Shown: in pieces, positions 16,022 to 63,453 of the stretch
How the letters are laid out: each line of letters starts with the position of its first letter
Numbering within the stretch: position 1 is the first letter of the stretch
Assembly: GCA_003599635.1 (NCBI GenBank)
Contig: QZIX01000009.1
Location: 66,065-130,064, forward strand
Direction: 5' to 3'
DNA from: Candidatus Parcubacteria bacterium
Lineage (GTDB): Bacteria > Patescibacteriota > Patescibacteriia > Buchananbacterales > SURF-54
DNA: 64,000 nucleotides
Notes under the pieces: generated by a model
Told to the model about the DNA's origin: nothing
The model's database searches: none
What the model saw: the letters and a program-made list of their open reading frames with translations, nothing else
Program-made: the position numbers and the translations under genes

Positions 16022-16054
16022 AAGAAAAAGTCCCGAGGTTGGTTTCCTCGGGAC
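16022..16054 (-). terminator. Intrinsic terminator (GTCCCGAGG-ttggttt-CCTCGGGAC plus U-run on the minus strand)
   Basis: Perfect 9-bp stem directly 3' of the 304-aa gene. Confidence 0.6.
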
Positions 16055-16071
16055 GGGTTGATTTTGACTGG

Positions 16072-40073: not shown

Positions 40074-40077
40074 AAAT

Positions 40078-40773
40078 ATGAAGAAGAAAAATAATTATCA
40101 AGAGTACAATGTATTAATAGAGTATGGAAATCAGTTTTATAAAATATGTAAGATTATAATTAAGAGAAATGAAGGTGACATAATTTATATACCATCACAG
40201 AGAAAAGTCATGTCAAAGGGTAATATTATCCGAGACAAGACTTTTAATATTTCTACTTTAGATAGAAAAATCGACCATATTACCTTTCACAAAAGCGGAA
40301 CTGCACATGTGGTGTTTTCAGATAGTGATGTCGAAGTCTTAGAATATGGATTTGCTGACCTAGGAAACGTTGCTAACAAAGAGAGGTTAGAAATAAGCAA
40401 AACAGGTTATCAAACACTCATTATTGATACTTTTATAGAATCAATAAGTTTACCAAAAACTAAAGTCATTATAAACGATATAATTTTTTACGTTCCAAAG
40501 ATGACGCCATTTCAATTTCAATTGCGCTTAGTTTCTGGACGTTTGGTTGTTTCCACTTTGTATCCCGAGGTTTTACAAACAAAACATAAGTTAATTATCA
40601 AAAATGGTCATGAGTGCACAAACTTTGTGGGTAAGGAAGATATGGATTTAGGTTGGGAATCAAATAATCAAGATAAGTTGCTACATAATATTTTATATAC
40701 ATATATTGGAAATGATTTATTACAGGGAAGGAGAATCGTTATACCAAGCTCTGACCAAATGACAAACGAATAA
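40078..40773 (+). CDS. Hypothetical protein (231 aa)
   Basis: Follows the methyltransferase-like gene by 4 nt; no recognizable motif. Confidence 0.45.
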   Translation: MKKKNNYQEYNVLIEYGNQFYKICKIIIKRNEGDIIYIPSQRKVMSKGNIIRDKTFNISTLDRKIDHITFHKSGTAHVVFSDSDVEVLEYGFADLGNVANKERLEISKTGYQTLIIDTFIESISLPKTKVIINDIIFYVPKMTPFQFQLRLVSGRLVVSTLYPEVLQTKHKLIIKNGHECTNFVGKEDMDLGWESNNQDKLLHNILYTYIGNDLLQGRRIVIPSSDQMTNE

Positions 40774-44665: not shown

Positions 44666-44881
44666 TAATTATTACAATCAGTTTTTGAAGATTTAAATAT
44701 TTGATGAGCAGAATTTTGTTAAAATATTAAGATTAAATCCGAAGATTGCAACACAACTCATAGTTATGTATTAAAATTGCTTAAAATTTGGCTAAAAAAA
44801 AGAGGTTTTTGCCTCATTTTTTTAATGGTATAATTATATTTACAGATTCCTTTTAATTGACAGCGGTGTTACTATAATTAT

Positions 44882-45466
44882 ATGGCGACTCCCGAACAAT
44901 TTATTTCAATATTTTCGCAAGAAATTGCTAAACTGGCAACGACGACCGCGCCAAAAGCCGCCCAGACAGCAATTGCCGATTCTTTTTCAAATTGGGACTG
45001 GTCTATTCCCACCTGGGATCTGATTATTTTGGTAATTTTTTTTCTGACCGTATTTTTTTACAGTTTCGCCCTGGGCCGGGACAGAATTTTGGGCATATTA
45101 ATTTCCACCTACATTGCCCTGGCAGTCAGCTATTCAATGCCTTTTACGGATGAATTGCAGAAGGCAATTGATCAAACCGGTTTTCTTGCTTTTAAAATTT
45201 CAGCCTTTGTAATAGTTTTTTTCCTGATGTTTTTTTTGTTATTTAGAAGCCGTCTGATCCAAAGCGTAAGCGTCTTTTCCGGAAATTCATTGCAGATAAT
45301 TTTTTTTAGTTTTCTCCTTGTCGGTCTTTTGACCAGCATAATTTTATCTTTTCTTCCGCAGCAGGCTTTGGACAACCTTACTTTTTTCACTAATTATATT
45401 TTTTTATCCGACATAGCCAGATTTTTATGGATAATTCTGCCCGTTATGGCACTGGCATTTTTTTAA
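44882..45466 (+). CDS. Hypothetical polytopic membrane protein; first gene of the surface-modification operon
   Basis: Four or five TM helices; its stop lies 4 nt before the next ATG. Confidence 0.45.
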   Translation: MATPEQFISIFSQEIAKLATTTAPKAAQTAIADSFSNWDWSIPTWDLIILVIFFLTVFFYSFALGRDRILGILISTYIALAVSYSMPFTDELQKAIDQTGFLAFKISAFVIVFFLMFFLLFRSRLIQSVSVFSGNSLQIIFFSFLLVGLLTSIILSFLPQQALDNLTFFTNYIFLSDIARFLWIILPVMALAFF

Positions 45467-45469
45467 TTT

Positions 45470-47050
45470 ATGGCTAAAGATTTGAATATTAAAATTATAC
45501 AATTTTTTGTTTTGGCCGTTGTTTTAATCGGTGTATTCATTACAGTTTACAGTCCGCATTTATACTACGACTATTATTATCCCTTGCACTATGATGAGTG
45601 GCTGAATATAAGCGAAGCTAAAAAGATAAATAATGACGGTTTTTTTGAATCTGTTTTTTACCCTTACTTTAAACAAAAGATAGTCAGGATGAATCTGGTT
45701 TACGGTTTCGATATTTTTCTTGCCGTCTTAGAGTCAATATCCGGAAATCTGATTCCGGTTTATCAGTATCTTCCGGCGGCAACCGCGGTTTTAAACGCAA
45801 TAATTTTGTTTTGGCTGGCAAAAACAATTTCCAAAAGTTTTATCTTTTCGCTTACGGTCGTTATTTTTTTCGCTTTACTGCCAAGCAATATCAATATACT
45901 GGGAAACTGGTTTTTTTTACCGTCGACATTTTCATATTTTTTTGTTTCAGCCATCATTCTGTTTTTCAGCCGTTATTTGGCGGAAGAGGACGGAAAATAC
46001 TTTTTTTTGGCTGTAGTTTTTTTAACCGTTCTGTTCCTGGTTTACCCTCTTAATGCCGTTTTTCTGCTGCCTGTTCTGTACATTGCCTATATTTTGGCGG
46101 GAAAAAAATCACCGGCAAAACAGTTTAAATTATTTTCGTTGTTCGTTATTTCCCTTGTGCCTTTTTTATTATTATTTTTTGCCCTCGCCTTTAAAGTGGG
46201 CCTTCCGCATGAACAGCAGAGCGGGAATTTATTTTTAATTTTTAAAAATGCCATAGTCTACAACAGCCGTTCGCAGGGACTTTTGCTTAATGATTTATAT
46301 TTTATGCCGCCTTTTTTTTATTATGTGCTTATGGTTTTTTCCTCTGTCGCCATAGTGAAAAATTACAAAAACAAGATGTTTTATGTCTTGAATTTATTAT
46401 TTTTCTGGTCATTGGGCAACTTGCTGCTTTTCAAGATGTTTAATTTCACTCTTCTGTCATCCTATCACCGAATATTGTATCTGAGCTTTATAGTTTTTTG
46501 TCTGCTGGCGCCGTTGGGAATAAAAAATACGGTCGAACTGCCTGGCAAAATGAAAAAAAATATTTTTGCCGGAAAAATTTTGAAATTCATGGCTGCCGCG
46601 GCGTTTATATTTTACATTGTATCAAGCATGGGAAAAAATTTTTTTCCCTCCGATAACTTAAAGCCGGTTAAGTTGATTGATGCTAAAAATTCGGCCATGC
46701 TTGAATTTATTAAAGAAAATTATTCCAAAAGAGTGGTGCTTGCGCCTCAGCTTTTGTCCGTCGTCATTTATCCCCTGACCGCGAATTTCGCGGCTTCATT
46801 GGCCAATGTTCCGTTTTTTTCTCTTGAAAAAAGAGGGGATTACTTTTTCTCGGCAGAAAAGAGGATGTTTAATGATATAAACAACTATGATCCTTTTTCC
46901 GCTTTTCTGATGCAAAGCGACGAGTCAAGAAAAAAAATTTTGGAATTGTATGATTTTGATTTGGTCTATTCGCCCGGCAGAATTGATTCGCAGCTTCTGA
47001 ATCCAATATTTGCTCAAGACGGCCAGTTTGTTTACGAAGTAAAAAAATAA
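45470..47050 (+). CDS. GT-C-fold polytopic glycosyltransferase-like membrane protein (ArnT/PMT/GT39-like)
   Basis: More than 10 TM helices, an acidic HYDEW motif in the first extracytoplasmic loop, and a large C-terminal soluble domain. Confidence 0.5.
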   Translation: MAKDLNIKIIQFFVLAVVLIGVFITVYSPHLYYDYYYPLHYDEWLNISEAKKINNDGFFESVFYPYFKQKIVRMNLVYGFDIFLAVLESISGNLIPVYQYLPAATAVLNAIILFWLAKTISKSFIFSLTVVIFFALLPSNINILGNWFFLPSTFSYFFVSAIILFFSRYLAEEDGKYFFLAVVFLTVLFLVYPLNAVFLLPVLYIAYILAGKKSPAKQFKLFSLFVISLVPFLLLFFALAFKVGLPHEQQSGNLFLIFKNAIVYNSRSQGLLLNDLYFMPPFFYYVLMVFSSVAIVKNYKNKMFYVLNLLFFWSLGNLLLFKMFNFTLLSSYHRILYLSFIVFCLLAPLGIKNTVELPGKMKKNIFAGKILKFMAAAAFIFYIVSSMGKNFFPSDNLKPVKLIDAKNSAMLEFIKENYSKRVVLAPQLLSVVIYPLTANFAASLANVPFFSLEKRGDYFFSAEKRMFNDINNYDPFSAFLMQSDESRKKILELYDFDLVYSPGRIDSQLLNPIFAQDGQFVYEVKK

Positions 47051-47053
47051 TTT

Positions 47054-48250
47054 ATGCATTTACTTATAGTAACCCCTTATTTATATCCCCAGGGCAGCGG
47101 AGTCGGAAGGATATCATATTCTTTGGCCAGGGAACTAAGTAAAATCGGCCATCAAATTACTGTTTTTAGCACCGGGAAAAATTCAGACGTTGAAGAAAAC
47201 GGCATCCGCATCATAAAAAAGAAACCTTTTTTTCACTTCAGCAACACTCCTGTACGTCTGCGTTTGTTTTTCGACCTTGTTTTTTTGATTAAAAAAGGCA
47301 GATATGATTTTATTCTGGCTTTCACGCCAGTTCCTTATTATATGGACATGGCGTCATTGGCAGCCAGAATTTTATCCGTGCCGTTTTACGTTTCTTATAA
47401 TACCTATAGCTTTAAAAGAGAGCGGACGCTGCTTGATTTTATTACCTGGCTGTATTCCGCAATCGTTGAAAGATTTTCCTTGGGCTATGCCAGAAAGATT
47501 TTTATAAACAGTAAGAGGTTAAAACAGGCAGATATTCTACCGCAGTATAAAAATAAACTCGCTTACATAACTCCCGGAGTTGATCGCAGTCAGTTTCAGC
47601 CGACAAGCAGCCGTTCCGGTTCAGCCGGTTATATGTTATATGTTGGTCCTTTAAACAAAGGACAACGCTGGAAAGGGATAGATTATTTGATTTCCGCCAT
47701 GGTTAAAATAAAAAAAGAATATCCTGAAATAAAATTAAAAATTGCCGGTGGCGGCAATCTGCGGGCTTATTATCATAAAATTGTCAGGGCAGGCAAATTG
47801 GATGGCAATATAGAATTTGTCGGATTTTTGCAAAATGAAGATCTGGTAAAAATTTATCAGAATTGTCGTTTTCTGGTTTTGCCGTCTTACGGGAAAGCCG
47901 AACTTGTACCGACCGCCATTATTGAAGCTTTTGCCTGCGGTAAAACAGTAGTTTCAACATTTTCCGCCGGTATACCTTTTTTAGTGACAGATGGAACAGA
48001 CGGAAAATTAATTGAGCCAAAAAACATTGACCAATTGGCGAAAGCGATGGCAGAATTATGGATAAATGACAATTATCGCCGGAAACTTGAAGAGGGGGCG
48101 ATAAAAAAAACAAAGGAATTTTCCTGGACTAAAATGGCCGAAGATCTTCTGGCGCAGGTAAAACATAATATAACAACAGCCGAATTAAAACAATGTCAAT
48201 TGAAACAAAATTGCAAAAAATCCGATTTTTGGCAAACGCAAGAATTTTAG
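47054..48250 (+). CDS. Glycosyltransferase family 4 (GT-B fold)
   Basis: E-X7-E region AIIEAFACGKTVVSTFSAGIPFLVTDGTDGKLIEP. Confidence 0.8.
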   Translation: MHLLIVTPYLYPQGSGVGRISYSLARELSKIGHQITVFSTGKNSDVEENGIRIIKKKPFFHFSNTPVRLRLFFDLVFLIKKGRYDFILAFTPVPYYMDMASLAARILSVPFYVSYNTYSFKRERTLLDFITWLYSAIVERFSLGYARKIFINSKRLKQADILPQYKNKLAYITPGVDRSQFQPTSSRSGSAGYMLYVGPLNKGQRWKGIDYLISAMVKIKKEYPEIKLKIAGGGNLRAYYHKIVRAGKLDGNIEFVGFLQNEDLVKIYQNCRFLVLPSYGKAELVPTAIIEAFACGKTVVSTFSAGIPFLVTDGTDGKLIEPKNIDQLAKAMAELWINDNYRRKLEEGAIKKTKEFSWTKMAEDLLAQVKHNITTAELKQCQLKQNCKKSDFWQTQEF

Positions 48251-49236
48251 AATTCTTTAAGGCGGAGGAAAATAAATTAACCGCCGGATTAAACGCTGAG
48301 ATCAGAAATATAATGTCACAGCTGGAAAGGTTTTGTCTTGGCGGGAAAAAAATAAGAATAGCACTTGCTTATTTTTCCTATCTGGCCTGCGGGGGCAAAT
48401 CCAAAAAAAAGTTTTTCAGAACCGCGGTTTCTTTGGAATTATTTCATAATTTTTTTCTGATTCACGATGATATTATCGATAAAGATAATTACAGGAGAAA
48501 TAAACTGACTTTTCATAAATACTTCGGTGAAAAAAGAGGCGATTTGCACTATGGTCTGTCCCTGGCAATTATTGGTGCGGACCTGTTGAATTTTTTTGCT
48601 TACAAAAACTTAGATAATTCCAGATATCCGGAAAAGGTTAAAAATAATATCAGAAAACTTTTTTCTGTTTTTCTTTCCAGAGTTTGTTTAGGAGAATTTT
48701 TGGATATATATTTTGCTAAGGTTAAAAAGGTTAGCGCTAAAGAGCTGCTTTTCGGATACGACTGCAAGACGGGCGGCTATACTACGACTTTGCCTGTCGT
48801 TTTCGGCGCCCATTTGGCCGGGGCCAGTTACAGACAGATTAAGGAATTAACGGAATTTTCCGGACCTTTGGGGCAGGTTTTTCAGATAAAGGATGATATT
48901 CTGGACGTTTTCGGAAACAAAAGCAAATTCGGCAAGGATCCGGGTTCAGACCTTTTGAACGGAAAAAAAACAATTTTGCTGGATTTTGTAATGAAAAATG
49001 CCGATTGCCGGGAGAAAAAATATCTGAATTCTCTGGCAAATAAACGGAAGTTGTTATTTAAAGATATTTTTAAAATAAGAAAAATAATAAGAAAAAGCGG
49101 CGCCATAACCTATTTTGATAAATACACCGAAAATTTGGTCTTTAAAGCGAAAGCCAAAATCAACAAAAAAAATTTCAACCGTAACGTTTGTGATTTACTG
49201 GCTTTGGCAGATTATTTTTTAATAAGAAGTTCCTGA
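48193..49236 (+). CDS. Polyprenyl diphosphate synthase (trans-isoprenyl, short-chain type)
   Basis: First DDxxD motif LIHDDIID with aromatic residues at -4/-5, second motif FQIKDDILD. Confidence 0.75.
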   Translation: MSIETKLQKIRFLANARILEFFKAEENKLTAGLNAEIRNIMSQLERFCLGGKKIRIALAYFSYLACGGKSKKKFFRTAVSLELFHNFFLIHDDIIDKDNYRRNKLTFHKYFGEKRGDLHYGLSLAIIGADLLNFFAYKNLDNSRYPEKVKNNIRKLFSVFLSRVCLGEFLDIYFAKVKKVSAKELLFGYDCKTGGYTTTLPVVFGAHLAGASYRQIKELTEFSGPLGQVFQIKDDILDVFGNKSKFGKDPGSDLLNGKKTILLDFVMKNADCREKKYLNSLANKRKLLFKDIFKIRKIIRKSGAITYFDKYTENLVFKAKAKINKKNFNRNVCDLLALADYFLIRSS

Positions 49237-49237
49237 T

Positions 49238-50071
49238 ATGATAAGCGCAATAATTCCTTGCTTTAATTGTATCCGTTCCCTGGACAAGACAATTGCATCC
49301 CTTATGAAGGCAAATGTTAAGTTAGAAATTTTTATTATTGACGATGGATCCTCTGACGCTTCGGCTGATTTTGCCAGAAAAAAATATCCCGGCATAAAAC
49401 TTCTGATCAACGAAAAAAACAGAGGACGCGCATTTTCGCGCAACAGGGGAATGGCGGCTGCAGGAAATAATGTTATGTTATTTATCGATTCTGATGTCTG
49501 GCCGGGTAATGGTTGCCTGGAACAATTATATGAAAATATATCCGATAATGATATCGTTTATCCGAAACTGGCTTACGAGGATGGAGCCGTTAAACATCCC
49601 AAAGATGACAATAGCAGTTATCCTTATGATGCCGGCTGTTTTATGATAAAAATGCCGGACGGAAAAGACGTTAAATTTGATGAGAATTTTAAATATCTTG
49701 AAGACCAGGATTTTTTCATCAGATGTCATTTAAATAATTTTAAGGCAAAATATGTCAGGTCGGCCGTGGCTTTTCACTCTAACAGACAAACGACAAGCAG
49801 CGGCAGTGAAAAATTTTATCAGGAAATGTGCGATATTGTATATGGTATGAATAAATACCGCGGGAAAAAAATAAAACCGGTCCACAATTTCAGCCGAGTC
49901 AATCTGGTTAAAGGTCTGGTTGCAGCTATTTTCAATTATAACTATTTTTTTTACGGCCCCAGCGCTTCGGTATTAAAAAAAATCAGCCGGCTTTTTTTAA
50001 AACACAAAAAATTTGAAATTAGCAATTTCAAGATGTTGAGGCTGTATTTTAAGGCTTTGAAAAATTTATGA
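49238..50071 (+). CDS. Glycosyltransferase family 2 (polyprenyl-phosphate sugar synthase-like)
   Basis: IIPCFNCIRSLDKTIASL ... FIIDDGSSD ... DSD motifs of GT-A fold. Confidence 0.8.
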   Translation: MISAIIPCFNCIRSLDKTIASLMKANVKLEIFIIDDGSSDASADFARKKYPGIKLLINEKNRGRAFSRNRGMAAAGNNVMLFIDSDVWPGNGCLEQLYENISDNDIVYPKLAYEDGAVKHPKDDNSSYPYDAGCFMIKMPDGKDVKFDENFKYLEDQDFFIRCHLNNFKAKYVRSAVAFHSNRQTTSSGSEKFYQEMCDIVYGMNKYRGKKIKPVHNFSRVNLVKGLVAAIFNYNYFFYGPSASVLKKISRLFLKHKKFEISNFKMLRLYFKALKNL

Positions 50072-50841
50072 TAAAAATACTGGATTTTGCAAAATTGATA
50101 CGTTTTAACGAATGGCTGGACAAATTATGGCTGTTAATCATCTCTTTGGTTGTTTTGCTTATGGCCACCGGAAAAAATTTTTATTTTGAAGCTGTGGCTC
50201 AGGCTGCCTATCTTTTTTTTCTTCTGGCTTTCGGATTTTTGCTCAATTCAGTCTTTGAAAAGGATATTGACCTTGCCGTCGGCAAGAACCGGCATCTTGA
50301 TCTTTTTACGCCCGGACAGATAAAATTATTTATCCTTTCATTTTTACTGATCGTTTCGCTTTTGCCTTTGTTTTTTAATAACGGCTTGGCGCAGTTATAT
50401 AATTTAATGATGATAATTCTGGCTGTTTTTTATTCGATGCCGCCCCTTTATTTTAAAAACAAACCGGTTTTAGGCATTTTGGTTCCATCATTTCTGCAGG
50501 GGCCTTCAACACTGCTGTTTTTAAGCGTTAGTGACATAAATACTGTTTATCTGGGTCTTATTGGGGCAATAGTTCTGGCCGTTAACATCTATATGCAATT
50601 GATTCATCAGGTGAGAGACTTTGAAAACGACAAAAAAATGAATCTGAAAACTTTCGCCGTTTTTTTTGGTTCTGAAACGACCTATTTTATGATAAGATTG
50701 TTTATAATCATAGTGGTTTTTTTATTGCTGGCGATTTTTTTCCTGTTTGATGATTTTTTCTTTTCATTATTTGCCGTCCTGATCTACCTGATTTTTCTGA
50801 TCCCGTCTTTGGCCAGTCATTTTCAGCTTAAAAAATTATGA
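50068..50841 (+). CDS. UbiA-family prenyltransferase
   Basis: Seven or eight TM helices; Asp-rich motifs NSVFEKDIDLA (cf. NDxxDxxxD) and VRDFEND. Confidence 0.55.
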   Translation: MIKILDFAKLIRFNEWLDKLWLLIISLVVLLMATGKNFYFEAVAQAAYLFFLLAFGFLLNSVFEKDIDLAVGKNRHLDLFTPGQIKLFILSFLLIVSLLPLFFNNGLAQLYNLMMIILAVFYSMPPLYFKNKPVLGILVPSFLQGPSTLLFLSVSDINTVYLGLIGAIVLAVNIYMQLIHQVRDFENDKKMNLKTFAVFFGSETTYFMIRLFIIIVVFLLLAIFFLFDDFFFSLFAVLIYLIFLIPSLASHFQLKKL

Positions 50842-51866
50842 TCGTTAATTTTTTAAAAAATTTATTTGGCATAATTCACTATAACAACAAAATAGATTTT
50901 TTTATTTACAAAAAATTGCGTTCATATTTGCCGAAAAATCAATATCCCAGGCCGCCCAAATCTATAGCCATCGACCCTTGTTCGGTCTGCAATTTAAGTT
51001 GCCCTGCCTGCGTCGCCTGCAAATCCACTCCCGGCTTTGTTTCGGCTAAGCTGAGTTTTGACAAATTTAAATTAATGCTTGACAAAATGCCTTTCGCCAG
51101 GAAGTTGTTGTTGTGCAATTGGGGAGAGCCTTTTTTAAATGATGATATTTTTAAAATGATAAGGTATGCCAAGACAAAAAAATTGTATGTTTCTTTATAC
51201 AGCAATCTTAATATTAAAAAGAACGACTGTTTTTATACTGAGCTTGCGTTGTCGGGACTTGATGATCTTTTAATTTCCATTGACGGTATCACCCAGGAAA
51301 ATTATGAAAAATTCAGGGCCGGCGGGAATTTGTCGTTGGTTTTTGAAAATATAAAAAAAATAAATGCCGCCAAGGAAAAAAAATCATCCAGTCTGCCGAA
51401 ACTTTACTGGCATTTAACCATCAACAAATATAATGAAAAAGAAATTACTCAAGCCGCGGCCAAGGCCGAAGAACTGAAAATGCAGTTTATGCCCAACTAC
51501 ATTATTTTGTATCATCGGGTAATACCGATAGATGAATCTGAAATGGCCGAAAAAAACAGCTACTGGCTGCCGGCAAAAAATAAAAATTATTATCATTGGC
51601 AGAAAAACAAACCTTACCGGCTGGATTATCCCTGCCAGAATCTTTTTTTAACAGTTTTTTTTGATCCTGAAGGCAACTGCTTTCCCTGCCGTTATCTTTC
51701 CGATGTCAAAGATTCATTCGGCAATATTTTAAGAGAGGATTTTTTTGACATCTGGTACGGAAAAAAATTTCTTTCTGCCCGAAGTCTGTTTTTGAAGAAT
51801 AAAACATTGCCCGTCAATAAAGCTGCTACTATTTGTGACAGCTGCGTCATGCATAAAAAATATTGA
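50838..51866 (+). CDS. Radical SAM protein with C-terminal SPASM/twitch-like Cys cluster
   Basis: CNLSCPAC (Cx3Cx2C) near the N-terminus; C-terminal CQNLF...GNCFPCRYL...ICDSCVMH. Confidence 0.7.
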   Translation: MIVNFLKNLFGIIHYNNKIDFFIYKKLRSYLPKNQYPRPPKSIAIDPCSVCNLSCPACVACKSTPGFVSAKLSFDKFKLMLDKMPFARKLLLCNWGEPFLNDDIFKMIRYAKTKKLYVSLYSNLNIKKNDCFYTELALSGLDDLLISIDGITQENYEKFRAGGNLSLVFENIKKINAAKEKKSSSLPKLYWHLTINKYNEKEITQAAAKAEELKMQFMPNYIILYHRVIPIDESEMAEKNSYWLPAKNKNYYHWQKNKPYRLDYPCQNLFLTVFFDPEGNCFPCRYLSDVKDSFGNILREDFFDIWYGKKFLSARSLFLKNKTLPVNKAATICDSCVMHKKY

Positions 51867-51882
51867 ATTAATATATGGCATA

Positions 51883-53166
51883 ATGAATAAAAACAGCAGA
51901 AAATACAGGATTCTTCTGATAAATCCTTATCAGGACATGCGCAGCTGGATTATGTACAAGGAAAGGAATTTACTTTCCCTTTCTTTTACTACCAGAACGA
52001 TAAAAGCGATTACGCCGGATGATTTTGAAGTTAAGCTAATAGATCAATGTGTTGAAGATATTGATTTTGACGCAGATGTGGATTTAGTCGGCGTGACATC
52101 ACTGACACACAACTCTTATCGCGCTTATAAAGTTGCCGAAGAGTTTAAAAAAAGAAACAAGCCCGTGGTTATGGGGGGTTATCATGCGACTTTCCTTCCA
52201 GAGGAGGCGAAAAAATGCGTAGACAGCGTTGTTATTGGTGAAGCGGAAAATGTCTGGCCGGAACTGTTGAATGATTTTAAAAACGGCAAGTTAAAGGCTT
52301 TTTATAAAAGTAACCTGCCTGCGGAATTGCAGGGCCTGCCTATCGCTGCAAAAGAAAAATATTACGGGAGTAAATACGGGAGTTTTAGCATGCCTTATCC
52401 TATGCATGCTTCCAGGGGCTGCACCAACGGCTGTTCTTATTGTTCGATTAACCGCTTTTACAACCGTACAATAAGGTATCGCCCGATCATTGAAATAATT
52501 GATGAGATAAAAAAAACAGGGTATAAATTCATTGCTTTTATGGATGATAATTTAATTCTTGACGCCAAATATGCCAAAGAATTTTTTGCCGCTTTAAAGC
52601 CGTTGAATATAAAATGGACAATGCAAACTTCAATTCTGATTGCCGAGCATGAGGAGCTTTTAAAACTGGCTGCGGAAAGCGGGTGTTTCTGCTTTTACAT
52701 AGGAGTTGAAAGTATCAACCAGCTTAGCCTTGATTCAGTAGACAAAAAAATTAACCGGGCAGAAAAATTCCTCGCCGCTTTTAAAAAAATAAAAGAATAC
52801 GAAATTAGCATTGTACTTTTGATAATCTTCGGCTTTGACGGTGATACTAAAAGCGTTTTTAATCAGACTCTGGATTTTTTAAAGGAAGCCGGAGTTTTAA
52901 ATGCCGAATTCAGCATGCTGGTGCCTTTTCCCGGGACTTTGTTGTATAAAAAATTAAAAAAAGAAAATCGTATATTAAGTTATGACTGGAAAAATTACAA
53001 TCCCGGCTGGCATTGCGTCTTTCAGCCAAAAAATATGGAGCCGCATGAATTAGAAGCGGGTTTTAAAAAAGTTTTGATTAAATATAATACTCCCTTTTGG
53101 GTTTTAAAAAGGTTAATTGCCGGCGGTAAAAAAATTTTTTTAACAATGCCCGGATACTATTTATAA
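51883..53166 (+). CDS. B12-binding-domain radical SAM protein
   Basis: N-terminal Rossmann-like B12-binding region (RILLINPY...VVMGGYHATF) and rSAM motif CTNGCSYC; an alternative start at 51835 overlaps the preceding gene. Confidence 0.75.
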   Translation: MNKNSRKYRILLINPYQDMRSWIMYKERNLLSLSFTTRTIKAITPDDFEVKLIDQCVEDIDFDADVDLVGVTSLTHNSYRAYKVAEEFKKRNKPVVMGGYHATFLPEEAKKCVDSVVIGEAENVWPELLNDFKNGKLKAFYKSNLPAELQGLPIAAKEKYYGSKYGSFSMPYPMHASRGCTNGCSYCSINRFYNRTIRYRPIIEIIDEIKKTGYKFIAFMDDNLILDAKYAKEFFAALKPLNIKWTMQTSILIAEHEELLKLAAESGCFCFYIGVESINQLSLDSVDKKINRAEKFLAAFKKIKEYEISIVLLIIFGFDGDTKSVFNQTLDFLKEAGVLNAEFSMLVPFPGTLLYKKLKKENRILSYDWKNYNPGWHCVFQPKNMEPHELEAGFKKVLIKYNTPFWVLKRLIAGGKKIFLTMPGYYL

Positions 53167-53420
53167 ATATTCGGTATGTAAATTATTTTACTGTGCCCGT
53201 AATTGTTGTCTGTTATAACATCAGAGAAAAACTTAAGAATGTTTTTAGTAAAATCGTCATTTTCTATCAAAAAATTCAGGAATTCAGGAATAATTAAAAA
53301 AGTTATCCACATCCTAAGCAGATCTCAATTTTTTTCTTTTATATTTGATATAACTGGCAATTTATGTCATACTTAATGTGCAAAATGGTAACTGTGATTG
53401 AATAAAAAAGTCTAAAAACT

Positions 53421-56400
53421 TTGATGTTTTATAGTGAGCAAGACACAATGAAAATAAGGAAAACAAAAAGAAAATTTAAAAAAAGAGATTTTTTGATTTT
53501 AAGATCTGAAAAAAACCAAAGAAGAGAGCTAAACGACTTTTCGGGAAAAGAAAAGAACATAGACCATTTTTACACTAGAAATTCCCGCTTTACTTCCCCT
53601 TTGCCTCCGGCTAAATACGGATTCGGCCCTCTTTTAAGAAAATTGGAAAAGAAATTGATATTAAACCCTTACAGCGCGGTATTTTATTTTTTGTTAATTT
53701 TTGTACTGGTTCAGGGAACTTTCCCTGTTTTTTCTTTTCAATTCAAAAACAAGGTCTGGCAGACAGCTGCAGACTGGCAGGAATGGCAGGTTGATAATTT
53801 GTCAATTACTGAAAATGGTAATTTGGTTCTGGCTCAGTATGTTGAAGATGAGCCAGATATCGAAGTTTTATCTGAAAATAATGATATTGCCGGAGATATT
53901 CAAATTGAAGACGGTCAGATTTTTCCCTCGGGTGATGAATCCTTAGAAGATGATGAAACAGGCAGTATGGGAGAGCAAATTAGCGAGGATGAAGATAGCG
54001 CCGGTGATGATTTAGATGATGATCCAGGAGCCGAAACGGAAGATATTCTGTCCGATTTACAGCAGGAATCGCCGGACGAACAGAGTCCAGACGAAGAATC
54101 GCCGGACGAACAGGCTCCGGACGAGGAAATTACTCAAGACGAAGAAACCGCTCCGGACGAGGAAACTGTTCCTGATGAGGAATCTGATATACAAAACGGC
54201 CAGACCGATTATATTTTGGGCGAGTCTTCCGGCGACGGACTGACCGAGACCGAAAATGACGATATACAAAATAATCCGCTGCCTGATGATTTGGCAAACC
54301 AACCGGATGAAGCAGCTGATGATAATTCAGAGGAGATTCAGGATTTATCGCAAATAATGGATGATTTATCAGTGGAAAAAAATGATACGCCAGAAGATGA
54401 TTCTGAATCCGAAAACTCCGCCGGAGATATTTCAGAAATTATCGAAGACGGAGTAGGTGGCCCTGAAATTTCTCTGGACTACGACGATGAAATTTTAGTG
54501 GAGCCGCCCAAACAACCGGCGCAATTATATCAGATTCAGGGTTCGGCTCAAATCTATTACGAACCGGAGCAGGGAATAAATCAGGTCTGGAAAGATTATA
54601 AGGCAAAAATAAAAGGTTCAGACGAAGAAAACCGGGTGGATTTTACCTTTTCTGCCGACAATGTTTTTTACACCCAGGATATGTCGCAACTGCCCGTCAG
54701 TCCGGGAATTTACATCAGGGCGAATTTTTTTGGCACCGGCCAAAAAACACCTTTATTAGGTTCGTTTAAAATTTTTTATCGGGATGAAAATTCAGACGAA
54801 GCACCCGCTGAAGAAAATCTTAATTTAACCGGCCAGGAAAAAAAGAAGTTTGACCGTTTCAGTTCAAAAAAATTAAATAATGTCCAGCTGTCGCCGGAAA
54901 AAAAGCAGCAAAGAAAGGCAAAACTGACTAATAAAAAAGTCGCTCCGGAAGAAGTAATTGAAAAACGAAACCTGTTTTCCCGTTCTTTTGCCGTCAAGCA
55001 GGGCAGCAGAAAGTTCAATAAAGGAAAGGTAAAAACCAAGCTGAATGATTCCAGTTTCAGAACGGAAATTTTCCGCTACCCGGTTAATTATCAGGATGAA
55101 GAAGGCGCCTGGCAGATAATTGAAAACGATTTTGAACAAATTGACCTAAAAGATTTGGACGGAAAACTAGATTCTGGGCAGGAACAAGATTCTGATTCCC
55201 AGACAGATTCAAATTCAGAAAGCAGCCAGAATAATGACAATGATTCCGAAACGGCAAACGAAAGTGAAGAAAATGCCGAGTCGGAAGCGGATTTTATTTT
55301 TGCCACGCTTGACAACAACTGGCAGACCTTTTTTCCCAATCTTGCCTCACAACCTCACCGCATACAGTATCAGGACAGGATAATCGAATACAGGATAGTC
55401 GGCGCTGATCAAAATTCCGTCGCCCGGGTTGAAAGCAATAAAATAACTTATCCGGAAGTTTTTGAAAATGTTGACTTTGTTTATACAATCGACAATGAAA
55501 GAGTCAAGGAAGATATCATAGTCAAATCTCCTGTAGAGCTGGATATTTCATATCAGATGAATGTTGCCAACGTTTATTTTGTCAGGGCAGAAGACGGCAG
55601 CATAAATTTTTACGACCAAACCACCGATGATAAGATATTTTCTCTGCAAAAGCCGTATGTTACCGATTTTATCGGCCAGAAAGCTGACCTGGATTTAGAA
55701 GTGGAAAAGGCGGGAGAAAACAGCTACCTGATAAGGTTGTTAAATACGACCGGCGTTGAACTTGATGACCCCCGAATTGTCTATCCGATAATTATCGACC
55801 CGACAACAACGATTTATGCTGCCGGAACCAATATTTATGTTGACGGTGACGTTTGGACAAATGGTACCGGATCTTATACGTATTTTGATGTCACATTAGC
55901 CGCTGCCAGATCGGGATTTTATGGAACTAATCAGTACCGTTCTTTTTTTGATTTTGATACATCGGGAATTGACGATGACGTTACGATTACTGATGTTGTT
56001 TTAAAAGTCTATGTCGCTGCAACGGCCGGAGGCACACTATCTGTCAATGCCATGGCTCAACAGGTAGGTTTCACTTCGTCAACTCCAGTAGTAGTTTATA
56101 CTGATGCCGGTGACGGCACAGTCTATTACACCGGCACACCCACAGCGTCGGCTTATAATAATCTGGACCTGGGAACCACGGCTGATTCTGACCTGCAAAC
56201 CAACCTTGCCAGTAATTGGTTTGGAGTCGGCGCAACAACGACTACCGGTTTGACCAGTATAAACACCAGCGGTATGGCCAGCAATAAGCCCTATCTTGAC
56301 GTTGCCTGGACTTATACTGATTGCGTTGATTTAACTATCGGCGAAGACACATCTTTGGCAGAAGATTTAACCTGTACCGGCACTATAACCGTAAACAACG

Positions 56401-59400
56401 GCGCCACTCTGACCGTTTCCGGCGCCAGAACCATAACTGCTAATGCCTTAACGCTTGACAACGGCGACATAACTAACAGCGGCTCAGGCGAACAGTCAAC
56501 TACAACCCTGGCAATCACCAGTGCCATTACCTTGTCCAATAGTTCTGATATAACCTCCAATTTAAATGTTACGGCGGCAACTCTGACTTTAAATTCAGGC
56601 ACGACAATTTCAGCCAATTCCAAGGGTTACCCTTCCAATACTGGGCCCGGAACCAGGGGTACTGGCGCGGGCGGCGGTTACGGCGGCAAGGGCGGAGCCA
56701 CGGGATCAGCTACCGCAGGCAGCATGTGGGGAAAATCCTCTGATCCGGAAAATTTAGGTTCAGGCGGCGGCCTGGGATCGGCAGGTCTTCTCGGTGGAGT
56801 CGGAGGCGGTTTGATTATTATGGATATTTCGGGAACTTTTACTTTATCGGGAACTGTTTCCGCCAATGGTGGTAATGGCGCAACTTTCGGCAGTGCAACC
56901 GGCGGCGGCGGCGGTTCTGGCGGCGGCATAAATATTACAGCCGGCACCTTGGAAGGCGATGGAACAATTACCGCCAACGGCGGCAATGGCGGAGCCAGCA
57001 CAAATTTTGCCGGCAGCGGCGGCGGCGGCGGCAGAATTTTTGTAAATTATGACACTTCAACTTTTAGTAATGAAACCGGCGCCACGACAAACGGCGGGAC
57101 AGGCGGCGGCGGCGGCGGTACTAACGGCAGCACGGGCGAAGACGGCACAATCGGCTTTTTTGATGCAACTAGTAACGACATTAACATTTACGAGGGCTGG
57201 CAGTGGCAGGAAGGCGAGGACCTTGATTTCAGGAATGTCACAATCGCCAACGCGCCAAAAATAAGGACTACATCGACAGCCGATATTACTTTGACCGGTA
57301 ATCTGACAGTTTCCACTTCCACCTGGGAAATTTATTCCGGCCTTTATCCCGAAATTAAAGCCGATAATTTAAGAATAAATAACAGCGACATAACCAATAA
57401 CGGCACGGGTGAAAAATCCACAACCACTTTAAATATTACCAATGATATTACTATTTCCACTAATTCCACCACCACTTCCAATTTGGATATTACCGCCGCT
57501 TCCATGACCATTGAAGACACGGTACATCTTATTGCTGATGGTCTGGGTTACAATTCCGAAGCAGGATTAGGTGCCGGCACATCAGGTAGCGGCGGCGGTT
57601 ATGGCGCAGCTGGCGGCGCATCTGGTGACGGTGACGCCGGAGGCACTACTTACGGAGAAGCAGCTACCCCGACATTTTTGGGTTCCGGTGGCAGTAATGG
57701 CACTGTTTTAGGCGGTTACGGAGGCGGAGGCGGCGGCATGATTTATATTAAGGTGACTGGTAGTTTTATTCATAACGGAACAATTAGCAGCAAAGGCAAT
57801 GATGGCACAGCTTCAACAGCCGATGGCGGAGGAGGCGGTTCGGGAGGCACAGTCTTTATAAAAACCGGCGATACAATGTTGGGAGCCGGCAATATTTTTG
57901 CCAGAGGCGGTTCGGGAGGAAGCAGCAGCGGCGCCCAGGGCGGAGGCGGCGGAGGCGGCGGGCGCATTGCCACCCGTCAGTGTACTAACAGTTTTACCGG
58001 CACCAAATCCGCAACCGGCGGGGCGGGCGGCAGTCCTTCGGGCGTAGCCGGTTCAGATGCCGATGTCAACAATAACGATACTTTCTGTCCGCCCTCAAGC
58101 AATTTTAATTCTGCCTCGCAAAAATCAGACGGTTCCGGGGATGCTGATTTGTCTTTTACGGTTGATGATCAGGACGATTCTAACGTCAAAATGAAAATTG
58201 AATATACTTCAGACGCCAATTGTGAAACCGGCTGGTCAGACCCTACTTTAGTCGGTCCTGTAAGCGTCGCTTACGGCTCTGCGCCGGATTTGGACAATGG
58301 CAACGCCTATCAGGTAGGAACTGTAACCGGCGTATCAACAAGTTCGGGCGTCAATGATCCGGTGCAGTTTGACTGGGATTCTGATACAGATTTGCCGGCC
58401 GGCAATGTCACATATTGCCTGCGCGTTACCGGAAATGACGGCACTGACGACCAGATAAGACCGAGTACCATAACCTTAACCGTCGACAACGTAAATCCGA
58501 CTGTTAGCAGTCTGGCAATATCCACTCCGGCAGCGGCCGATTACAACGACGGCGTTGATGACTGGTATGACCAGGGACAATACGCCCAGATGGCGTTTAC
58601 TTCAACGCCGGCTGATACGAATTTGTCATCCTGCGACTGGACCTGGAACCACAGCGACGGCACAAGCTATGACTATTCGGACACCAACGTTGAAATCGGC
58701 ACGGACGGCGATATTACCACCGCCAATATGTCTGACGGCGTCATTGACCTTTCCGATGACACCGACGGCACGGTCACTTTAACCGTTACCTGTTCGGACA
58801 GTTACGGCAATTCCGGCAACAGTAATATCTCCTTCAAGTTTGACAATACTTCAGCTTCCGGGCTTGCCGACCTTGCTGTTAATGCCATTGACGATACCAC
58901 TGCTACCCTGGGCTGGACAGCTGCGTCCAGTGTCAGCAATTTCGATCATTATGAAATCTGGTACGGCACCAATGAAACCGATGTTGCCAACAGAAACGGC
59001 ACGGCCGCCGAATGGGACAATGACGATGACGGTAATTTAACCACTATTTCCACGACTTCCACGACCATAACCGGACTGACCACAGGACAAACTTATTACT
59101 TTAAAATCTGGGCCGCTGATGAGGCTAGTTTAAATAATGAGGCAACTGCCACGGGAACTTCCGGATATACGTCAAGCAATACTGCTCCCACAGGCGTTTT
59201 TACCGTCAGCTCCTTGCCAACACAAAAAACAGACGGCTCGGGCTATGTTGACATTTCCATAACAGTTGATGATGCCGATGACAATGATACCATGGCCAAA
59301 ATTGAATATGACACTGACGGCACCTGCGACGGCCCCTGGCTTGACCCGACTATTTTAGGTTTGGCAACAGCCACTTATTCTGATTCAGGCGGCGTGCCTG

Positions 59401-62400
59401 ATGTAAATAATGCTAATGACTATCAGATAGGCACCACAGCCAGTACAAGAATAATCACATCATCCGGAGCCAATACTGTTACGTTTGACTGGGATTCAAA
59501 AACTGACCAGGCATCTGCTGACGGCACTTACTGTTTACGGCTGACAGTTAACGACGATACCGCAGATCAGGCAGTACCCGCAACTCAAACAGTTACAGTT
59601 GACAATGTCAATCCAACTGTCAGCAGCCTTGCTATATCCACTCCCGCTGCTGCGGATTATAACGACGGCGCTGATGACTGGTATGACCAGGGCGACTATG
59701 CCCAGATGGCTTTTTCTTCAACGCCGGCTGACACCAATCTTTCTTCCTGCGATTGGACATGGAACCACAGTGACGGTGCCAGTTACGATTACTCGGATAC
59801 CAACTTTGAAATCGGGACAGACGGCGATATTTCTGCGGCTAATATGGTTTCCGGCGGCATAGATTTGTCGGATGACGCTGACGGCACGGTAACTTTGACT
59901 GTGACTTGCGCTGACGCTTATGGCAATTCCGGCAATACCAATATTTCCTTTAAGTTTGACAATACGGCGCCGACAGGTTTAGCCGGGCTGGCAGCCGCAG
60001 CCGACGGCGACACTGCTGTTGACTTGACCTGGACTGCTGCGGCGGAAAGTAACTTTGGCCATTATGAAATCTGGTATGGCACAAATCAAAGCGACGTTAA
60101 CGGCAGGTCGGGAACAGCAACGGAGTGGGATAATTCCGACGATGCCGCATTGGCAACTGCGGCCACTGTTACGACAAATATTTCCGGCCTTAATAATTCC
60201 TCAACCTATTATTTTAAAATATGGGCTGTTGATGATTTAGTAAATGAAGCCACTTTGGATTCAATAAGTTTTGCCTTTTCGGTTTGCGGCGATGGCGTGG
60301 CTGAAGGATCTGAACAATGCGATGCCAGCGACCTTAACAGCCAAAGTTGTGAGACTCTGGGGCAGGGATTTATAGGAGGCACCTTAGCCTGTTCGGGTTC
60401 GTGCACCTATGATACTACTGGTTGTACCAGTTCACAGGGGTGTACTACCTGCGGTAACGACGACAACGATGATGACACTGCTTTTGTCATAAGCAGCGTG
60501 GAGGTAGGGCAAATAACTGGCAGCTCGGCCCAAATTTCGTGGCTGACGAATATAGACTCTGATTCTTATGTTTACTACGGTTTGACGCCGGCTTATGAAT
60601 TAGGTTTTTATTATATAAACGAGCTGACGCAAAATCATTCAGTAACACTTGGCGATTTACAGCCAACTACGACATATTACTACAAAGTTTATTCAGTGGC
60701 CGGGAGCGATTCTGACGAATCAAACGGATCTGTTTTTGCCACTGCCCAATGTTCAGCAGGTGAACATTTAATCTGCGGCCAGACCGAAGTCGGCTTATGC
60801 ACATTCGGCTGGCGTGACTGCGTGAGCGGTTACTGGGGGGAATGCAGCGCTGTTTTACCCGCTGCTGAAATCTGCGGCAGCGGAGAGGATGAAGATTGCG
60901 ACGGTTTTATTGATCTGGATGACAGCGATTGTGCTTGCATTTCAGGCACAATTGAAACTTGCGGTGAAACTGATATCGGCTTGTGCGAATTCGGGCAAAG
61001 AACCTGCCAGGACGGCCAGTGGGGGGAATGCAGCGCTGTTTTACCCGCTGCTGAAATCTGCGGCAACGGAGAGGATGAAGATTGCGACGGCCTTTCTGAC
61101 GAAGGCTGCCCTGTCTGTGTACCCGGTAGCTTGCAGGAGTGTGGGTTAACGGATGTTGGCGAATGCGCCATGGGCATAAGGTATTGCGGTGAAGATGGTA
61201 TCTGGGGTCTTGATTGCGTTAACGCTGTTTACCCTGTTCCTGAAGTCTGCGATGATTTTAAAGATAATGATTGTGACGGTTTTATAGATATTGAAGATGA
61301 TGAATGCGAGGTTTGCAGTCCTGGCAGTATAACTGAATGTGGAACTGATATTGGCATCTGTAGGCAAGGCGAAAGGACCTGCCAGGAAAACGGTGTTTGG
61401 GGTGTTTGTTACGGTGCCATTTATCCTGCTGAAGAAGTCTGTAATGATGAGATGGATAATGATTGCGACGGGGACACGGATGAAAATTGCTGCCAGCCGG
61501 TCTGGCAGTGTTATGACTGGTCGGAATGTAAAGACAATCGGCAGGTCAGGATCTGTATTGACATAAATAGCTGTGGAGTTTCCGAAGGCATGCCGGAAAC
61601 AATCAGAGACTGCGATGTTTGCACCCCCAACTGGACCTGCGGCTGGTCCGGCGAATGCATCGGCGGTGTGGAAGATTTGGTTTGCGTTGATTTAAACGAA
61701 TGCAATAAGCAGGAAGAAGCGCCTGTGGACCACCGTGCCTGCAGCGTCTGCGGCGACGGCACCTGCGAATTGGAAGAAACTTACGATAATTGCAACATAG
61801 ACTGTCCCCAGCAGGAATGTAAAATTTCCTGCCCAAACTCGTGCTACACTGTTGATGCCGGAGAATGTACCTGCATAGTCCAAAGTGCCTGCTGCGGTAA
61901 TCTGGTGTGCGAAGAAAACGAAAATTATAATACCTGCCCGGATGACTGCACTGTAAAGCAAAAAGAGTGCGGCGATGGCATTGACAATGATAATGACGGA
62001 AGGATTGATTTTCCCGAAGATGAGGGGTGTTCAGATGACAAGGATGGCAGCGAGGCCAGCTTTAAAGAGATGATTTTAAATGCCGGTGATAAATCCAAAG
62101 ATTTAATTGGTTTTTCCGGCGCTATTTTAAACGCTGCTAAAAATGCCTTAAAGCCTGTTCAAAATTTTACAGATAATCCTGAAGTGGAAAAAGTGTCAGA
62201 ACGAGTGGTTGCACCCGCGGCCGTGGCCTTGGGCAGCGCTGCTGCCATGTCAGCTGTGAATTTCACCAGCGTATTGGCTTATCTCCAGTATGTCATAACC
62301 CAGCCCTTTTATCTGTTTGCCAGAAGGCGCCGCAAAAAATGGGGGGTGGTTTATAATTCAGTAACAAAAAAACCTGTTGATTTGGCGATTGTCCGCCTTT

Positions 62401-63163: not shown

Positions 63164-63234
63164 CGGCCCGTTCGTCTAGTGGCAGGACGCATGGTTCTCA
63201 TCCATGCAACGGGAGTTCGATTCTCCCACGGGCT
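63164..63234 (+). tRNA. tRNA-Glu (anticodon CUC)
   Basis: Cloverleaf by hand: acceptor GGCCCGT/ACGGGCT, D-arm GTCT-AGTGGCA-GGAC, anticodon stem CATGG/CCATG with loop TTCTCAT, T-arm GGGAG-TTCGATT-CTCCC; TTCGTCTAG.GGC.AGGAC is typical of tRNA-Glu; no encoded CCA. Confidence 0.8.
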
Positions 63235-63453
63235 AACTACTGACGCACGGCTATTCCGACTCGCTTCGGGAAAATTATAATTTAAAATAAAAACGGTCAT
63301 ATATATTAAGAGTTAACATAAAAATAATAAATCTATGTTAACTTGACAAAAATCGAAAAATTTGGCAAATATAAATTATCGGTTCTTTTACAAAAAACTC
63401 CACAAGGGTAATTTTCCATGATATAAAGATTTGGGGAAAGGAAGGTAGATAAT

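Follow-up and report, generated by a model that had tools for sequence, protein, structure and literature searches.

Radical S-adenosylmethionine (SAM) enzymes that act on sugars include BtrN, a twitch dehydrogenase, AprD4, a dehydratase with a B12-like N-terminal domain, and GenK and GenD1, which are cobalamin-dependent C-methylases; AprD4-type enzymes carry their B12-like domain but are not known to use B12. The SPASM/twitch extension holds one (twitch) or two (SPASM, seven Cys) auxiliary [4Fe-4S] clusters. Among lipid-modifying members, GrsA and GrsB (Saci_1585 and Saci_0240, radicalSAM.org megacluster 2-1) are ring synthases of the B12-binding type. UbiA-family enzymes and glycosyltransferases (GTs) of the GT-C type are combined in donor systems such as the mycobacterial decaprenylphosphoryl-phosphoribose (DPPR) synthase Rv3806c with Emb/Aft and the TfpW pilin arabinosylation of Pseudomonas. 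The closest precedent that unites isoprenoid, glycosyltransferase and radical SAM functions is provided by HpnI (GT2)-HpnK-HpnJ and the archaeal calditol synthase Cds, in which a radical SAM enzyme remodels a sugar already placed on an isoprenoid lipid (PMC13459092). Here we analyzed a pair of adjoining radical SAM genes, one of SPASM/twitch type and one with a B12-binding domain, in a 64,000-nt stretch of a Candidatus Parcubacteria bacterium genome (assembly GCA_003599635.1, contig QZIX01000009.1, forward-strand positions 66,065-130,064), referred to below as the window, whose own numbering is used throughout. An earlier note, made from the sequence alone, had described the two genes as embedded among isoprenoid genes.

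The pair closes an eight-gene operon on the + strand (44882-53166) that encodes, in order, a 194-aa membrane protein, a 526-aa polytopic membrane protein, a GT4-family and a GT2-family glycosyltransferase with a prenyl diphosphate synthase between them, a UbiA-superfamily protein, the SPASM/twitch-type enzyme (342 aa, 50838-51866) and the B12-domain enzyme (427 aa, 51883-53166); a giant surface-protein gene follows. Both radical SAM genes are present on the + strand with their CX3CX2C motifs intact, and Pfam backs every assignment in the operon except those of the two membrane proteins. The GT4, GT2, UbiA and both radical SAM genes are spaced by -58 to +16 nt; the GT2/UbiA and UbiA/SPASM junctions overlap by ATGA, the latter by 4 nt, and the prenyl synthase gene (48193-49236) lies three genes upstream of the pair, as the earlier note had stated. 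The phrase "embedded among isoprenoid genes" was overstated; UbiA and the prenyl synthase are present, but only two of the eight genes are isoprenoid-related, while two encode glycosyltransferases and two encode unassigned membrane proteins.

Based on the composition and packing of the operon, the conservation of the cassette, the glycan neighbors of the SPASM family and the behavior of the pair as a unit, we propose that the two enzymes tailor the sugar moiety of an envelope glycoconjugate that is linked to an isoprenoid, a reading to which we assign about an even chance. It is also favored by the sugar-enzyme precedents, i.e., AprD4 as a PDB match and BlsE, BtrN and DesII as fold matches, and by the finding that no curated cutoff for a cofactor, peptide or lipid family was reached.

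The family of the SPASM enzyme is associated with glycan clusters. A scan using one genome per species gave 80 loci with relatives at 27-53% identity, in the Candidate Phyla Radiation (CPR), DPANN, Bathyarchaeota, Nitrospirota, Omnitrophota, Planctomycetota, Bacteroidota and others. When the 137 genes directly flanking the SPASM homologue in 75 loci were scanned with Pfam, they included 25 Radical_SAM, 19 GT2, 8 GT1/GT4, 8 SAM-dependent methyltransferase, 3 GT9, 3 Wzx-type flippase and 3 B12-binding genes; neither UbiA nor prenyl synthase was among the 25 most frequent neighbor families. Glycosyltransferases make up ~1-2% of a typical genome, so their share of ~22% among these neighbors indicates strong enrichment. 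The earlier suggestion that a lipid or glycan substrate is likelier than a peptide held insofar as no peptide substrate is indicated, and the neighbors narrow it toward a glycan.

The nearest SPASM relatives outside the cassette (32-37% identity, the closest 35-37%) lie in polysaccharide clusters, whose genes include Wzx, DegT, GT2, GT4, GT9 and methyltransferases. In locus L006 and in the cultured Geomobilimonas luticola (L016), the order is Wzx, SPASM, SPASM-domain protein, radical SAM, B12-domain radical SAM, DegT sugar aminotransferase and GT2, whereas a Moraniibacteriota (CPR) locus has AsnB, one further gene, SPASM, GT4 and GT2. A Woesearchaeota locus (L042) combines a B12-domain radical SAM gene, GT2, SPASM and a radical SAM gene, with a prenyl synthase 3 kb upstream. 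Of the 79 non-cassette loci, 19 have a B12-type radical SAM gene no more than 10 kb from the SPASM homologue; a prenyl synthase occurs in only 2 of the 79 and a UbiA homologue in none. The Wzx-to-GT2 sub-cluster shared by G. luticola JCM 17780, a Geobacter relative (NZ_JAHCVK010000005.1, ~7611-17080, with the SPASM, radical SAM and B12-domain genes at ~9944-14746), and the metagenomic L006 (~4077-13804) places four radical SAM-type genes in succession within a polysaccharide locus and is apparently uncharacterized.

Homologue searches and contig look-ups placed the full cassette in three Patescibacteria lineages only: the window, one population represented by L001, L002 and L008 (36-53% protein identity to the window), and L003, a 9-kb contig (39-60%). 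The core common to all three comprises the 526-aa membrane protein, GT4, GT2, UbiA and SPASM; L003 shows the genes from the membrane protein through SPASM, after which the contig ends. In L001 the order is dnaK-dnaJ, large membrane protein, GT4, B12-domain radical SAM, GT2, UbiA, SPASM, B12-domain radical SAM and giant surface protein, so that dnaK-dnaJ stands upstream of the cassette in both L001 and the window. The second B12-domain gene of L001 occupies the position of the prenyl synthase, which is therefore not obligatory for the cassette; the synthase occurs in two of the three cassettes, with 48% identity for its L003 orthologue. L001 also holds a third B12-domain gene, preceded by a decayed SPASM C-terminus (11506-11652), a pseudogene remnant that is 46% identical over 50 aa to residues 292-341 of the window enzyme. 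This remnant points to a former tandem duplication in which SPASM and B12 genes duplicated as one unit. A metagenome scan for further cassettes with the UbiA trio returned the known contig only. A small DUF1616 gene on the - strand (99-100 aa, ~3 transmembrane (TM) segments) lies between the large membrane protein and GT4 genes in L001 (4466-4765) and L003 (3813-4115); the two copies are 54% identical, and the window lacks this gene, its two neighbors abutting there (47050/47054).

The SPASM/twitch-type enzyme matches Pfam Radical_SAM (PF04055, E = 3.4e-6) and SPASM (E = 7.4e-7, above cutoff), and its CX3CX2C motif, which in this superfamily serves the SAM-binding [4Fe-4S] cluster inside a partial TIM-barrel core, reads CNLSCPAC (residues 51-58, nt 50988-51011). 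In a 41-sequence family alignment, C51, C55 and C58 are near-invariant, the C-terminal C266, C284, C333 and C336 do not vary, and a fifth Cys, at 285, is found in most sequences. Judged by these residues, the C-terminal domain (nt 51633-51845) is a reduced form with 4-5 Cys and not the full 7-Cys SPASM, which fits one auxiliary cluster rather than the full SPASM pair; a two-cluster status is doubtful. An AlphaFold model built with the same alignment (predicted local distance difference test, pLDDT, 86.6) has the SPASM/twitch radical SAM fold, and its core matched many radical SAM structures with a fold-search probability of 1.00. Foldseek returned SuiB, BlsE, CteB, SkfB, BtrN, DesII, the tetraether enzyme GDGT-MAS, anSME, PqqE and viperin, with template modeling scores (TM-scores) of 0.5-0.6 and 13-19% sequence identity. 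As these matches span peptide, sugar, lipid and cofactor enzymes at similar scores, they confirm the fold and do not reveal the substrate class.

Comparison of the SPASM enzyme with NCBIfam, given here as bits against the family cutoff, yielded 98/380 for a tungsten-cofactor maturase, 55.3/500 for AhbD, 43.6/515 for NirJ, 34.9/450 for Tes (NF045702), 30.7/284 for MoaA, 28.1/381 for PqqE and 20.8/225 for HpnH. Its best PDB sequence match was GDGT-MAS/Tes (7TOL, 2.3e-7), over residues 45-175 only. Tes is a protein of ~500 aa with four domains, three [4Fe-4S] clusters and a rubredoxin-like iron (PMC13459092), whereas the window enzyme has 342 aa, a single reduced Cys domain and none of the extra cluster domains of Tes, and the NCBIfam match is confined to residues 48-176 of the core; we therefore rejected an assignment as Tes/GDGT-MAS.

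For the B12-domain enzyme, an ATG at 51883, 16 nt past the SPASM stop, gives a 427-aa protein identical to a public Candidatus Parcubacteria record, which makes 51883-53166 the likelier gene; the alternative GTG at 51835, the first in-frame start of the ORF finder, would overlap the SPASM gene by 32 nt. Pfam matches (residues in GTG-start numbering) are B12-binding (PF02310, E = 8.5e-13, residues 56-144, ~nt 52000-52266) and Radical_SAM (PF04055, E = 8.3e-20, residues 193-349, nt 52411-52881). The CX3CX2C motif of the enzyme reads CTNGCSYC (residues 180-187, nt 52420-52443). The architecture, a B12-like domain followed by the radical SAM core, is of class B type, a generic layout that GrsA and GrsB have as well. 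The best PDB sequence match was the aminoglycoside sugar dehydratase AprD4 (4.4e-11, partial). NCBIfam bits against cutoff were 84/251 for TIGR04013, 83.3/481 for BchE, 82/750 for ApyD, 79/577.6 for HpnJ, 73/360 for ladderane-B12, 53.7/650 for HpnR and 52.5/500 for AprD4. HpnP was not among the matches listed, and no Grs-named family was among the best 25 of 28, although no Grs reference sequence or model was compared.

A curated NCBIfam cutoff was reached by neither enzyme, nor by the additional B12-domain enzymes of L001 or the radical SAM enzymes of L006, and the near-equal low scores indicate no specific affiliation for either member of the pair. The hopanoid enzymes HpnR and HpnJ for the B12-domain protein and HpnH for the SPASM protein, all far under their cutoffs, were rejected, as were the cofactor enzymes MoaA, PqqE, AhbD, NirJ and BchE; BioB was not among the best 25 matches listed for either protein. 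The orthology to MoaA or BioB that the earlier note had named as one finding that would overturn its reading was thus not observed, while the analogies it had drawn to Tes and HpnP/HpnR are not supported as statements of family membership. No squalene-hopene cyclase was seen among the large window ORFs scanned, in agreement with that note.

Relatives of the B12-domain enzyme at 40-45% identity, many with a C-terminal DUF4070 and some with a fused STAS domain, are found in Nitrospirota and Thermodesulfobacteriota, and some at 41-44% adjoin a ketoacyl synthase or AMP-ligase gene, a context that hints at lipids. Taken together, the contexts are mixed and no consistent function can be transferred. 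The DUF4070/STAS family itself (e.g., P0004, P0005, P0009, P0059, P0117; L093-L097) is large and lies near arginine/lysine biosynthesis or ribosomal protein genes, and its fused STAS domain is anti-sigma antagonist-like.

Among described systems, the aminoglycoside and deoxysugar enzymes (BtrN, DesII, AprD4, BlsE, GenK/GenD1) resemble the window pair in that SPASM/twitch and B12-domain classes act on sugar carbons in clusters encoding glycosyltransferases. The likeness extends to AprD4 as the top PDB match of the B12-domain enzyme and to BlsE, BtrN and DesII among the top fold matches of the SPASM model. However, the scores and the low identity to the structural matches indicate no orthology, and those enzymes serve soluble actinomycete secondary metabolites, whereas the window pair belongs to a membrane-linked envelope operon of a CPR bacterium. 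HpnJ is among the top NCBIfam matches of the B12-domain enzyme, which is nevertheless not its orthologue; no squalene-hopene cyclase, HpnH or HpnK accompanies the pair, and Cds and HpnJ act singly whereas the window has a SPASM and B12 pair. Tes/GDGT-MAS with GrsA/GrsB share with the window the same two broad radical SAM classes near isoprenoid genes, and the window UbiA is weakly similar to digeranylgeranylglyceryl phosphate (DGGGP) synthase, but the operon has no other archaeal-lipid genes and the SPASM-family neighbors are glycan genes. The Rv3806c and TfpW systems are alike in having a UbiA-family enzyme, a large polytopic protein with an acidic first-loop motif and a surface polymer or protein as neighbor; they differ in that the DprE1/E2 epimerase genes are absent from the window operon and that the known systems have no radical SAM enzymes.

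If the pair tailors an envelope sugar, we envisage that the prenyl diphosphate synthase and the UbiA-family enzyme would supply or charge an isoprenoid carrier or anchor, to which GT2 and GT4 would add sugars from nucleotide sugars. Under anoxic conditions, the B12-domain enzyme and the compact SPASM/twitch enzyme would then modify unactivated positions of the sugar moiety; radical SAM enzymes are oxygen-sensitive. The former could carry out a cobalamin-mediated C-methylation or another C-C reaction, as GenK and GenD1 do, or a ring contraction of the kind proposed for HpnJ, and the latter could abstract a hydrogen atom and thereby bring about an oxidation, epimerization, deoxygenation or decarboxylation, as in BtrN, DesII, AprD4 and BlsE. 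Finally, the 10-11-TM, GT-C-like protein might polymerize the product or transfer it outside the membrane, perhaps to the giant surface protein.

By its sequence the product of 50068-50841 belongs to the UbiA superfamily (PF01040, E = 2.1e-16, 60.4 bits against a cutoff of 34.2), whose hallmarks are NDxxDxxxD and DxxxD motifs and 7-9 TM segments. Its first Asp-rich motif is a variant, NSVFEKDID (nt 50245-50271), while the second, DFEND (nt 50617-50631), is intact, as is the YSxxPxxxK motif; the clade form is NSxx(E/D)xxxD plus DxxxD, with N60, D68, D184 and D188 invariant. Assignment to the subfamilies of DGGGP synthase, DPPR synthase, MenA or UbiA was rejected, the best NCBIfam score being 51.7/205 bits with no cutoff met. 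The only two PDB sequence matches are weak, AfUbiA (4TQ3, 1.3e-7) and DGGGP synthase (6M31, 6.8e-6), and only 2 representatives among 1.84 billion cluster representatives matched at E<1e-30. Remote relatives are fused to CrtC, GT28_C, FG-GAP or methyltransferase-TPR modules, a mixture indicating that the clade is functionally heterogeneous and that a subfamily is not assignable; a wider alignment contained no conserved stretch usable for scanning. In two of these remote relatives, P0251 and P0274, the fusion partner is a CrtC-type carotenoid hydratase lipocalin domain, and in others it is FG-GAP/ASPIC.

The prenyl diphosphate synthase (polyprenyl_synt, E = 1.4e-49) is a short-chain trans-prenyl enzyme with two DDxxD motifs and Phe at -4 and -5 before the first; its best NCBIfam matches are short-chain synthases, all under cutoff. 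From these features it probably makes farnesyl or geranylgeranyl diphosphate, and it may be the housekeeping enzyme of the genome. The GT4-family protein (47054-48250), of the GT-B fold, matches Glycos_transf_1 (5.2e-32) and Glyco_transf_4 (7.3e-16) and has orthologues in L001 and L003 at 49-51% identity; the GT2-family protein (49238-50071; Glycos_transf_2, 2.6e-24) is soluble, with no TM segment, and its orthologues there are 48-51% identical.

The 526-aa protein (45470-47050) has ~10-11 TM segments and ends in a ~140-aa non-membrane domain. The loop that follows TM1 carries the motif YPLHYDEW (HYDEW at nt 45587-45601), which is invariant between the protein and its L001 and L003 orthologues at 37-39% identity. 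GT-C glycosyltransferases share the GT-C fold, have 8-13 TM helices with an acidic catalytic motif in the extracytoplasmic loop nearest the N-terminus, and use polyprenyl-phosphate sugar donors; the layout of the protein resembles theirs, which makes it a tentative GT-C candidate. Its match to Pfam PMT_2 is sub-threshold (E = 0.0055, 17.4 bits against a cutoff of 26.1, profile positions 15-155 of 160), the orthologues in L001 and L003 have no Pfam match, a PDB profile search returned nothing, hhalign against E. coli ArnT was negative (probability 0.14%), and a single-sequence AlphaFold2 model (pLDDT 42.8) was unusable. Homologue searches found only the protein itself among 5.8 billion clusters, and an HMM search of 1434 ORFs of the collected loci recovered the three orthologues only. 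The 194-aa protein (44882-45466; ~5 TM segments by hydropathy) has no Pfam or NCBIfam match and no tblastn match in L001 or L003; since it is not kept in the syntenic loci, it is probably accessory or lineage-specific.

Downstream of the pair, the giant gene (53421-63140, + strand, 3239 aa) encodes, from Pfam, sequence features and TM prediction, an N-terminal signal-anchor TM segment, an acidic low-complexity region, Gly-rich repeats, fn3, Cys-rich MopE-like repeats, DUF7948 and C-terminal TM segments. Its first 1000 aa are 37% identical to a 3858-aa protein after the L001 cassette. This conserved position makes the giant protein a candidate acceptor, or a mere neighbor. A blastn comparison of the spacers revealed a 27-nt element (53359-53385, + strand) matching the L001 spacer at 14480-14506 with 25 of 27 nt identical, in spacers that are otherwise unalignable and AT-rich. 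The element overlaps a promoter-like site (TTGATA-17-CATACT, 53345-53373) and could serve the giant gene as promoter, operator or part of a 5' leader; the gene may therefore be a separate transcription unit. The giant ORF also reaches 52% GC, against 35-43% in the rest of the window, and contains ~350-aa duplicated blocks, long Gly-rich repeats and, toward the C-terminus, two prealbumin-like modules with TM segments on either side.

Several observations weigh against the sugar-tailoring proposal. According to Pfam and NCBIfam, the operon has no gene for nucleotide-sugar synthesis, no recognizable priming phosphoglycosyltransferase and no recognizable flippase. To our knowledge, DPPR synthase is the only UbiA precedent in glycan pathways, and NCBIfam and PDB searches gave no specific similarity of the window UbiA to it; a prenylated lipid as product would fit UbiA and the prenyl synthase just as well. 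None of the sequence and structure tests applied to the 526-aa protein bore out its GT-C assignment. Furthermore, SPASM enzymes that act on sugars could not be told apart by the fold search from those that act on peptides or lipids, all of which scored 0.5-0.6, and a B12-like domain in the sequence does not by itself imply cobalamin binding, as AprD4, the best PDB match of the enzyme, illustrates. The B12-type partners in glycan clusters are not orthologous to the window enzyme (20-30% identity), and the latter's own 40-45% relatives stand in housekeeping, ketoacyl-synthase or AMP-ligase contexts.

The same genes could instead serve an isoprenoid lipid, which we consider unlikely though far from negligible. 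The prenyl synthase and UbiA would then build a DGGGP-like ether lipid or another prenylated acceptor, GT2 and GT4 would add a glycosyl head group to give a glycolipid, and the pair would methylate, cyclize or cross-link its chains in the manner of GrsA/B, Gmm, HpnP/R or Tes/Mss-like enzymes. The translational coupling of UbiA to the SPASM gene is consistent with this, as are the restriction of the UbiA matches in PDB to AfUbiA and DGGGP synthase, the 7TOL match of the SPASM enzyme, and the prenyl synthases of two cassettes and of L042, where one lies near a homologous trio; ketoacyl synthase or AMP-ligase genes beside some B12-enzyme relatives point the same way, and lipid modification is established for both B12-domain and SPASM-type enzymes (PMC13459092). 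The Tes match, however, covers only the generic radical SAM core of a protein without the rubredoxin-like and N-terminal cluster domains, and the HpnR, HpnJ and ladderane-B12 scores are 5-12 times under their cutoffs. In addition, no geranylgeranylglyceryl phosphate synthase, glycerol-1-phosphate dehydrogenase, squalene or hopene gene was found in the operon or the window ORFs scanned, L001 has a B12-domain gene in place of the prenyl synthase, and the other SPASM-family loci, where UbiA is missing throughout and prenyl synthase nearly so, have glycan genes as neighbors. Because UbiA is coupled to the pair, a prenyl synthase is present and some B12-enzyme relatives have lipid-like neighbors, we retain a lipid-tail role as a weaker option. 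The prevailing view is that CPR bacteria cannot synthesize membrane lipids. It is distinctly improbable, counting both of its forms together, that this Parcubacteria clade itself makes an isoprenoid-anchored envelope molecule, either (a) a UbiA-prenylated glycolipid modified by the pair or (b) a polyprenyl-phosphate sugar donor so modified. In the former, the pair would methylate, cyclize or cross-link isoprenoid chains as an oxygen-independent bacterial analogue of Tes/Grs; in the latter, the pair would epimerize or C-methylate a UbiA-made donor, replacing DprE1/E2-type chemistry, and a new GT-C-like class would move it to the giant protein.

Maturation of a peptide or protein, i.e., of a ribosomally synthesized and post-translationally modified peptide (RiPP) or of the giant surface protein, by an anSME/sactisynthase-like SPASM enzyme and a PoyC/Mmp10-like B12-domain enzyme appears highly unlikely. 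The RiPP maturases SuiB, CteB and SkfB do stand at the top of the Foldseek matches, but sugar- and lipid-acting enzymes match equally well, and the weak NCBIfam matches to the RiPP enzymes ApyD, WgkB and StsB are all far under cutoff. Pfam detected no PqqD/RiPP recognition element (RRE) domain in the pair, and only ~45 residues, modeled with low confidence, precede the core of the SPASM enzyme, leaving no room for one. The absence of a precursor ORF from the 53167-53420 spacer, claimed in the earlier note, was borne out; this spacer holds only AT-rich ORFs of 34-57 aa, none conserved, no small ORF in the flanking spacers or the upstream region is conserved with L001 or L003 at the peptide level, and the operon has no intergenic room for one. 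The giant gene is a conserved neighbor in the window and L001, yet it appears to have its own conserved upstream element, and the SPASM family is flanked by glycosyltransferases, not by peptidases or ABC exporters. We give only the faintest probability to a housekeeping or cofactor role, such as metallo-cofactor or tetrapyrrole maturation, with an incidental operon linkage in a compact genome. The SPASM enzyme does have the tungsten-cofactor maturase and the AhbD/NirJ families as its best NCBIfam matches, and amino-acid biosynthesis or ribosomal genes surround many of the B12-domain enzyme's 40-45% relatives, but the scores are well under cutoff and no tungsten or heme enzyme is nearby. Moreover, the UbiA-SPASM-B12 order is kept between genomes with 36-53% protein identity, in L003, too, SPASM comes after UbiA, there are signs that SPASM and B12 genes were duplicated in tandem as one unit, and the cassette is far too rare for housekeeping.

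Radical SAM tailoring in glycoconjugate and isoprenoid clusters is already known; what is new here are two orphan membrane components and a very narrow distribution. The chemistry of the pair may be new, and nothing shows a new reaction or principle. Our literature searches yielded no paper on this cassette or on a SPASM and B12 radical SAM pair in envelope polysaccharide clusters, and a 2026 review of lipid radical SAM enzymes has no UbiA- or polyprenyl-linked case (PMC13459092). If the sugar-tailoring proposal is correct, a widespread, as yet uncharacterized SPASM-type family, often with B12-domain partners, tailors surface glycans in anaerobes including CPR and DPANN, which could account for unusual sugars (C-methylated, deoxy or carbocyclic) of uncultured lineages. 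Compared with that on antibiotics, the radical chemistry of structural polysaccharides is barely explored. The orphan UbiA and the orphan polytopic protein beside a giant surface protein offer a handle on envelope building in ultra-small host-attached bacteria, and the homologous cluster in the cultured G. luticola makes the family experimentally approachable.

Elsewhere in the window, overall counts in the promoter and terminator scans were at chance level, and the sole match of the Rfam scan was one tRNA. A terminator-like hairpin (44802-44815) lies between dnaJ and the first operon gene (44882). Two adjoining ORFs of 208 and 231 aa (39447-40773) between the grpE region and dnaK have no Pfam match at E<=1e-5, while a 782-aa ORF on the - strand (17852-20200) encodes a DUF3160 protein. 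A tRNA-Glu(CTC) gene (63165-63235) follows the giant ORF.

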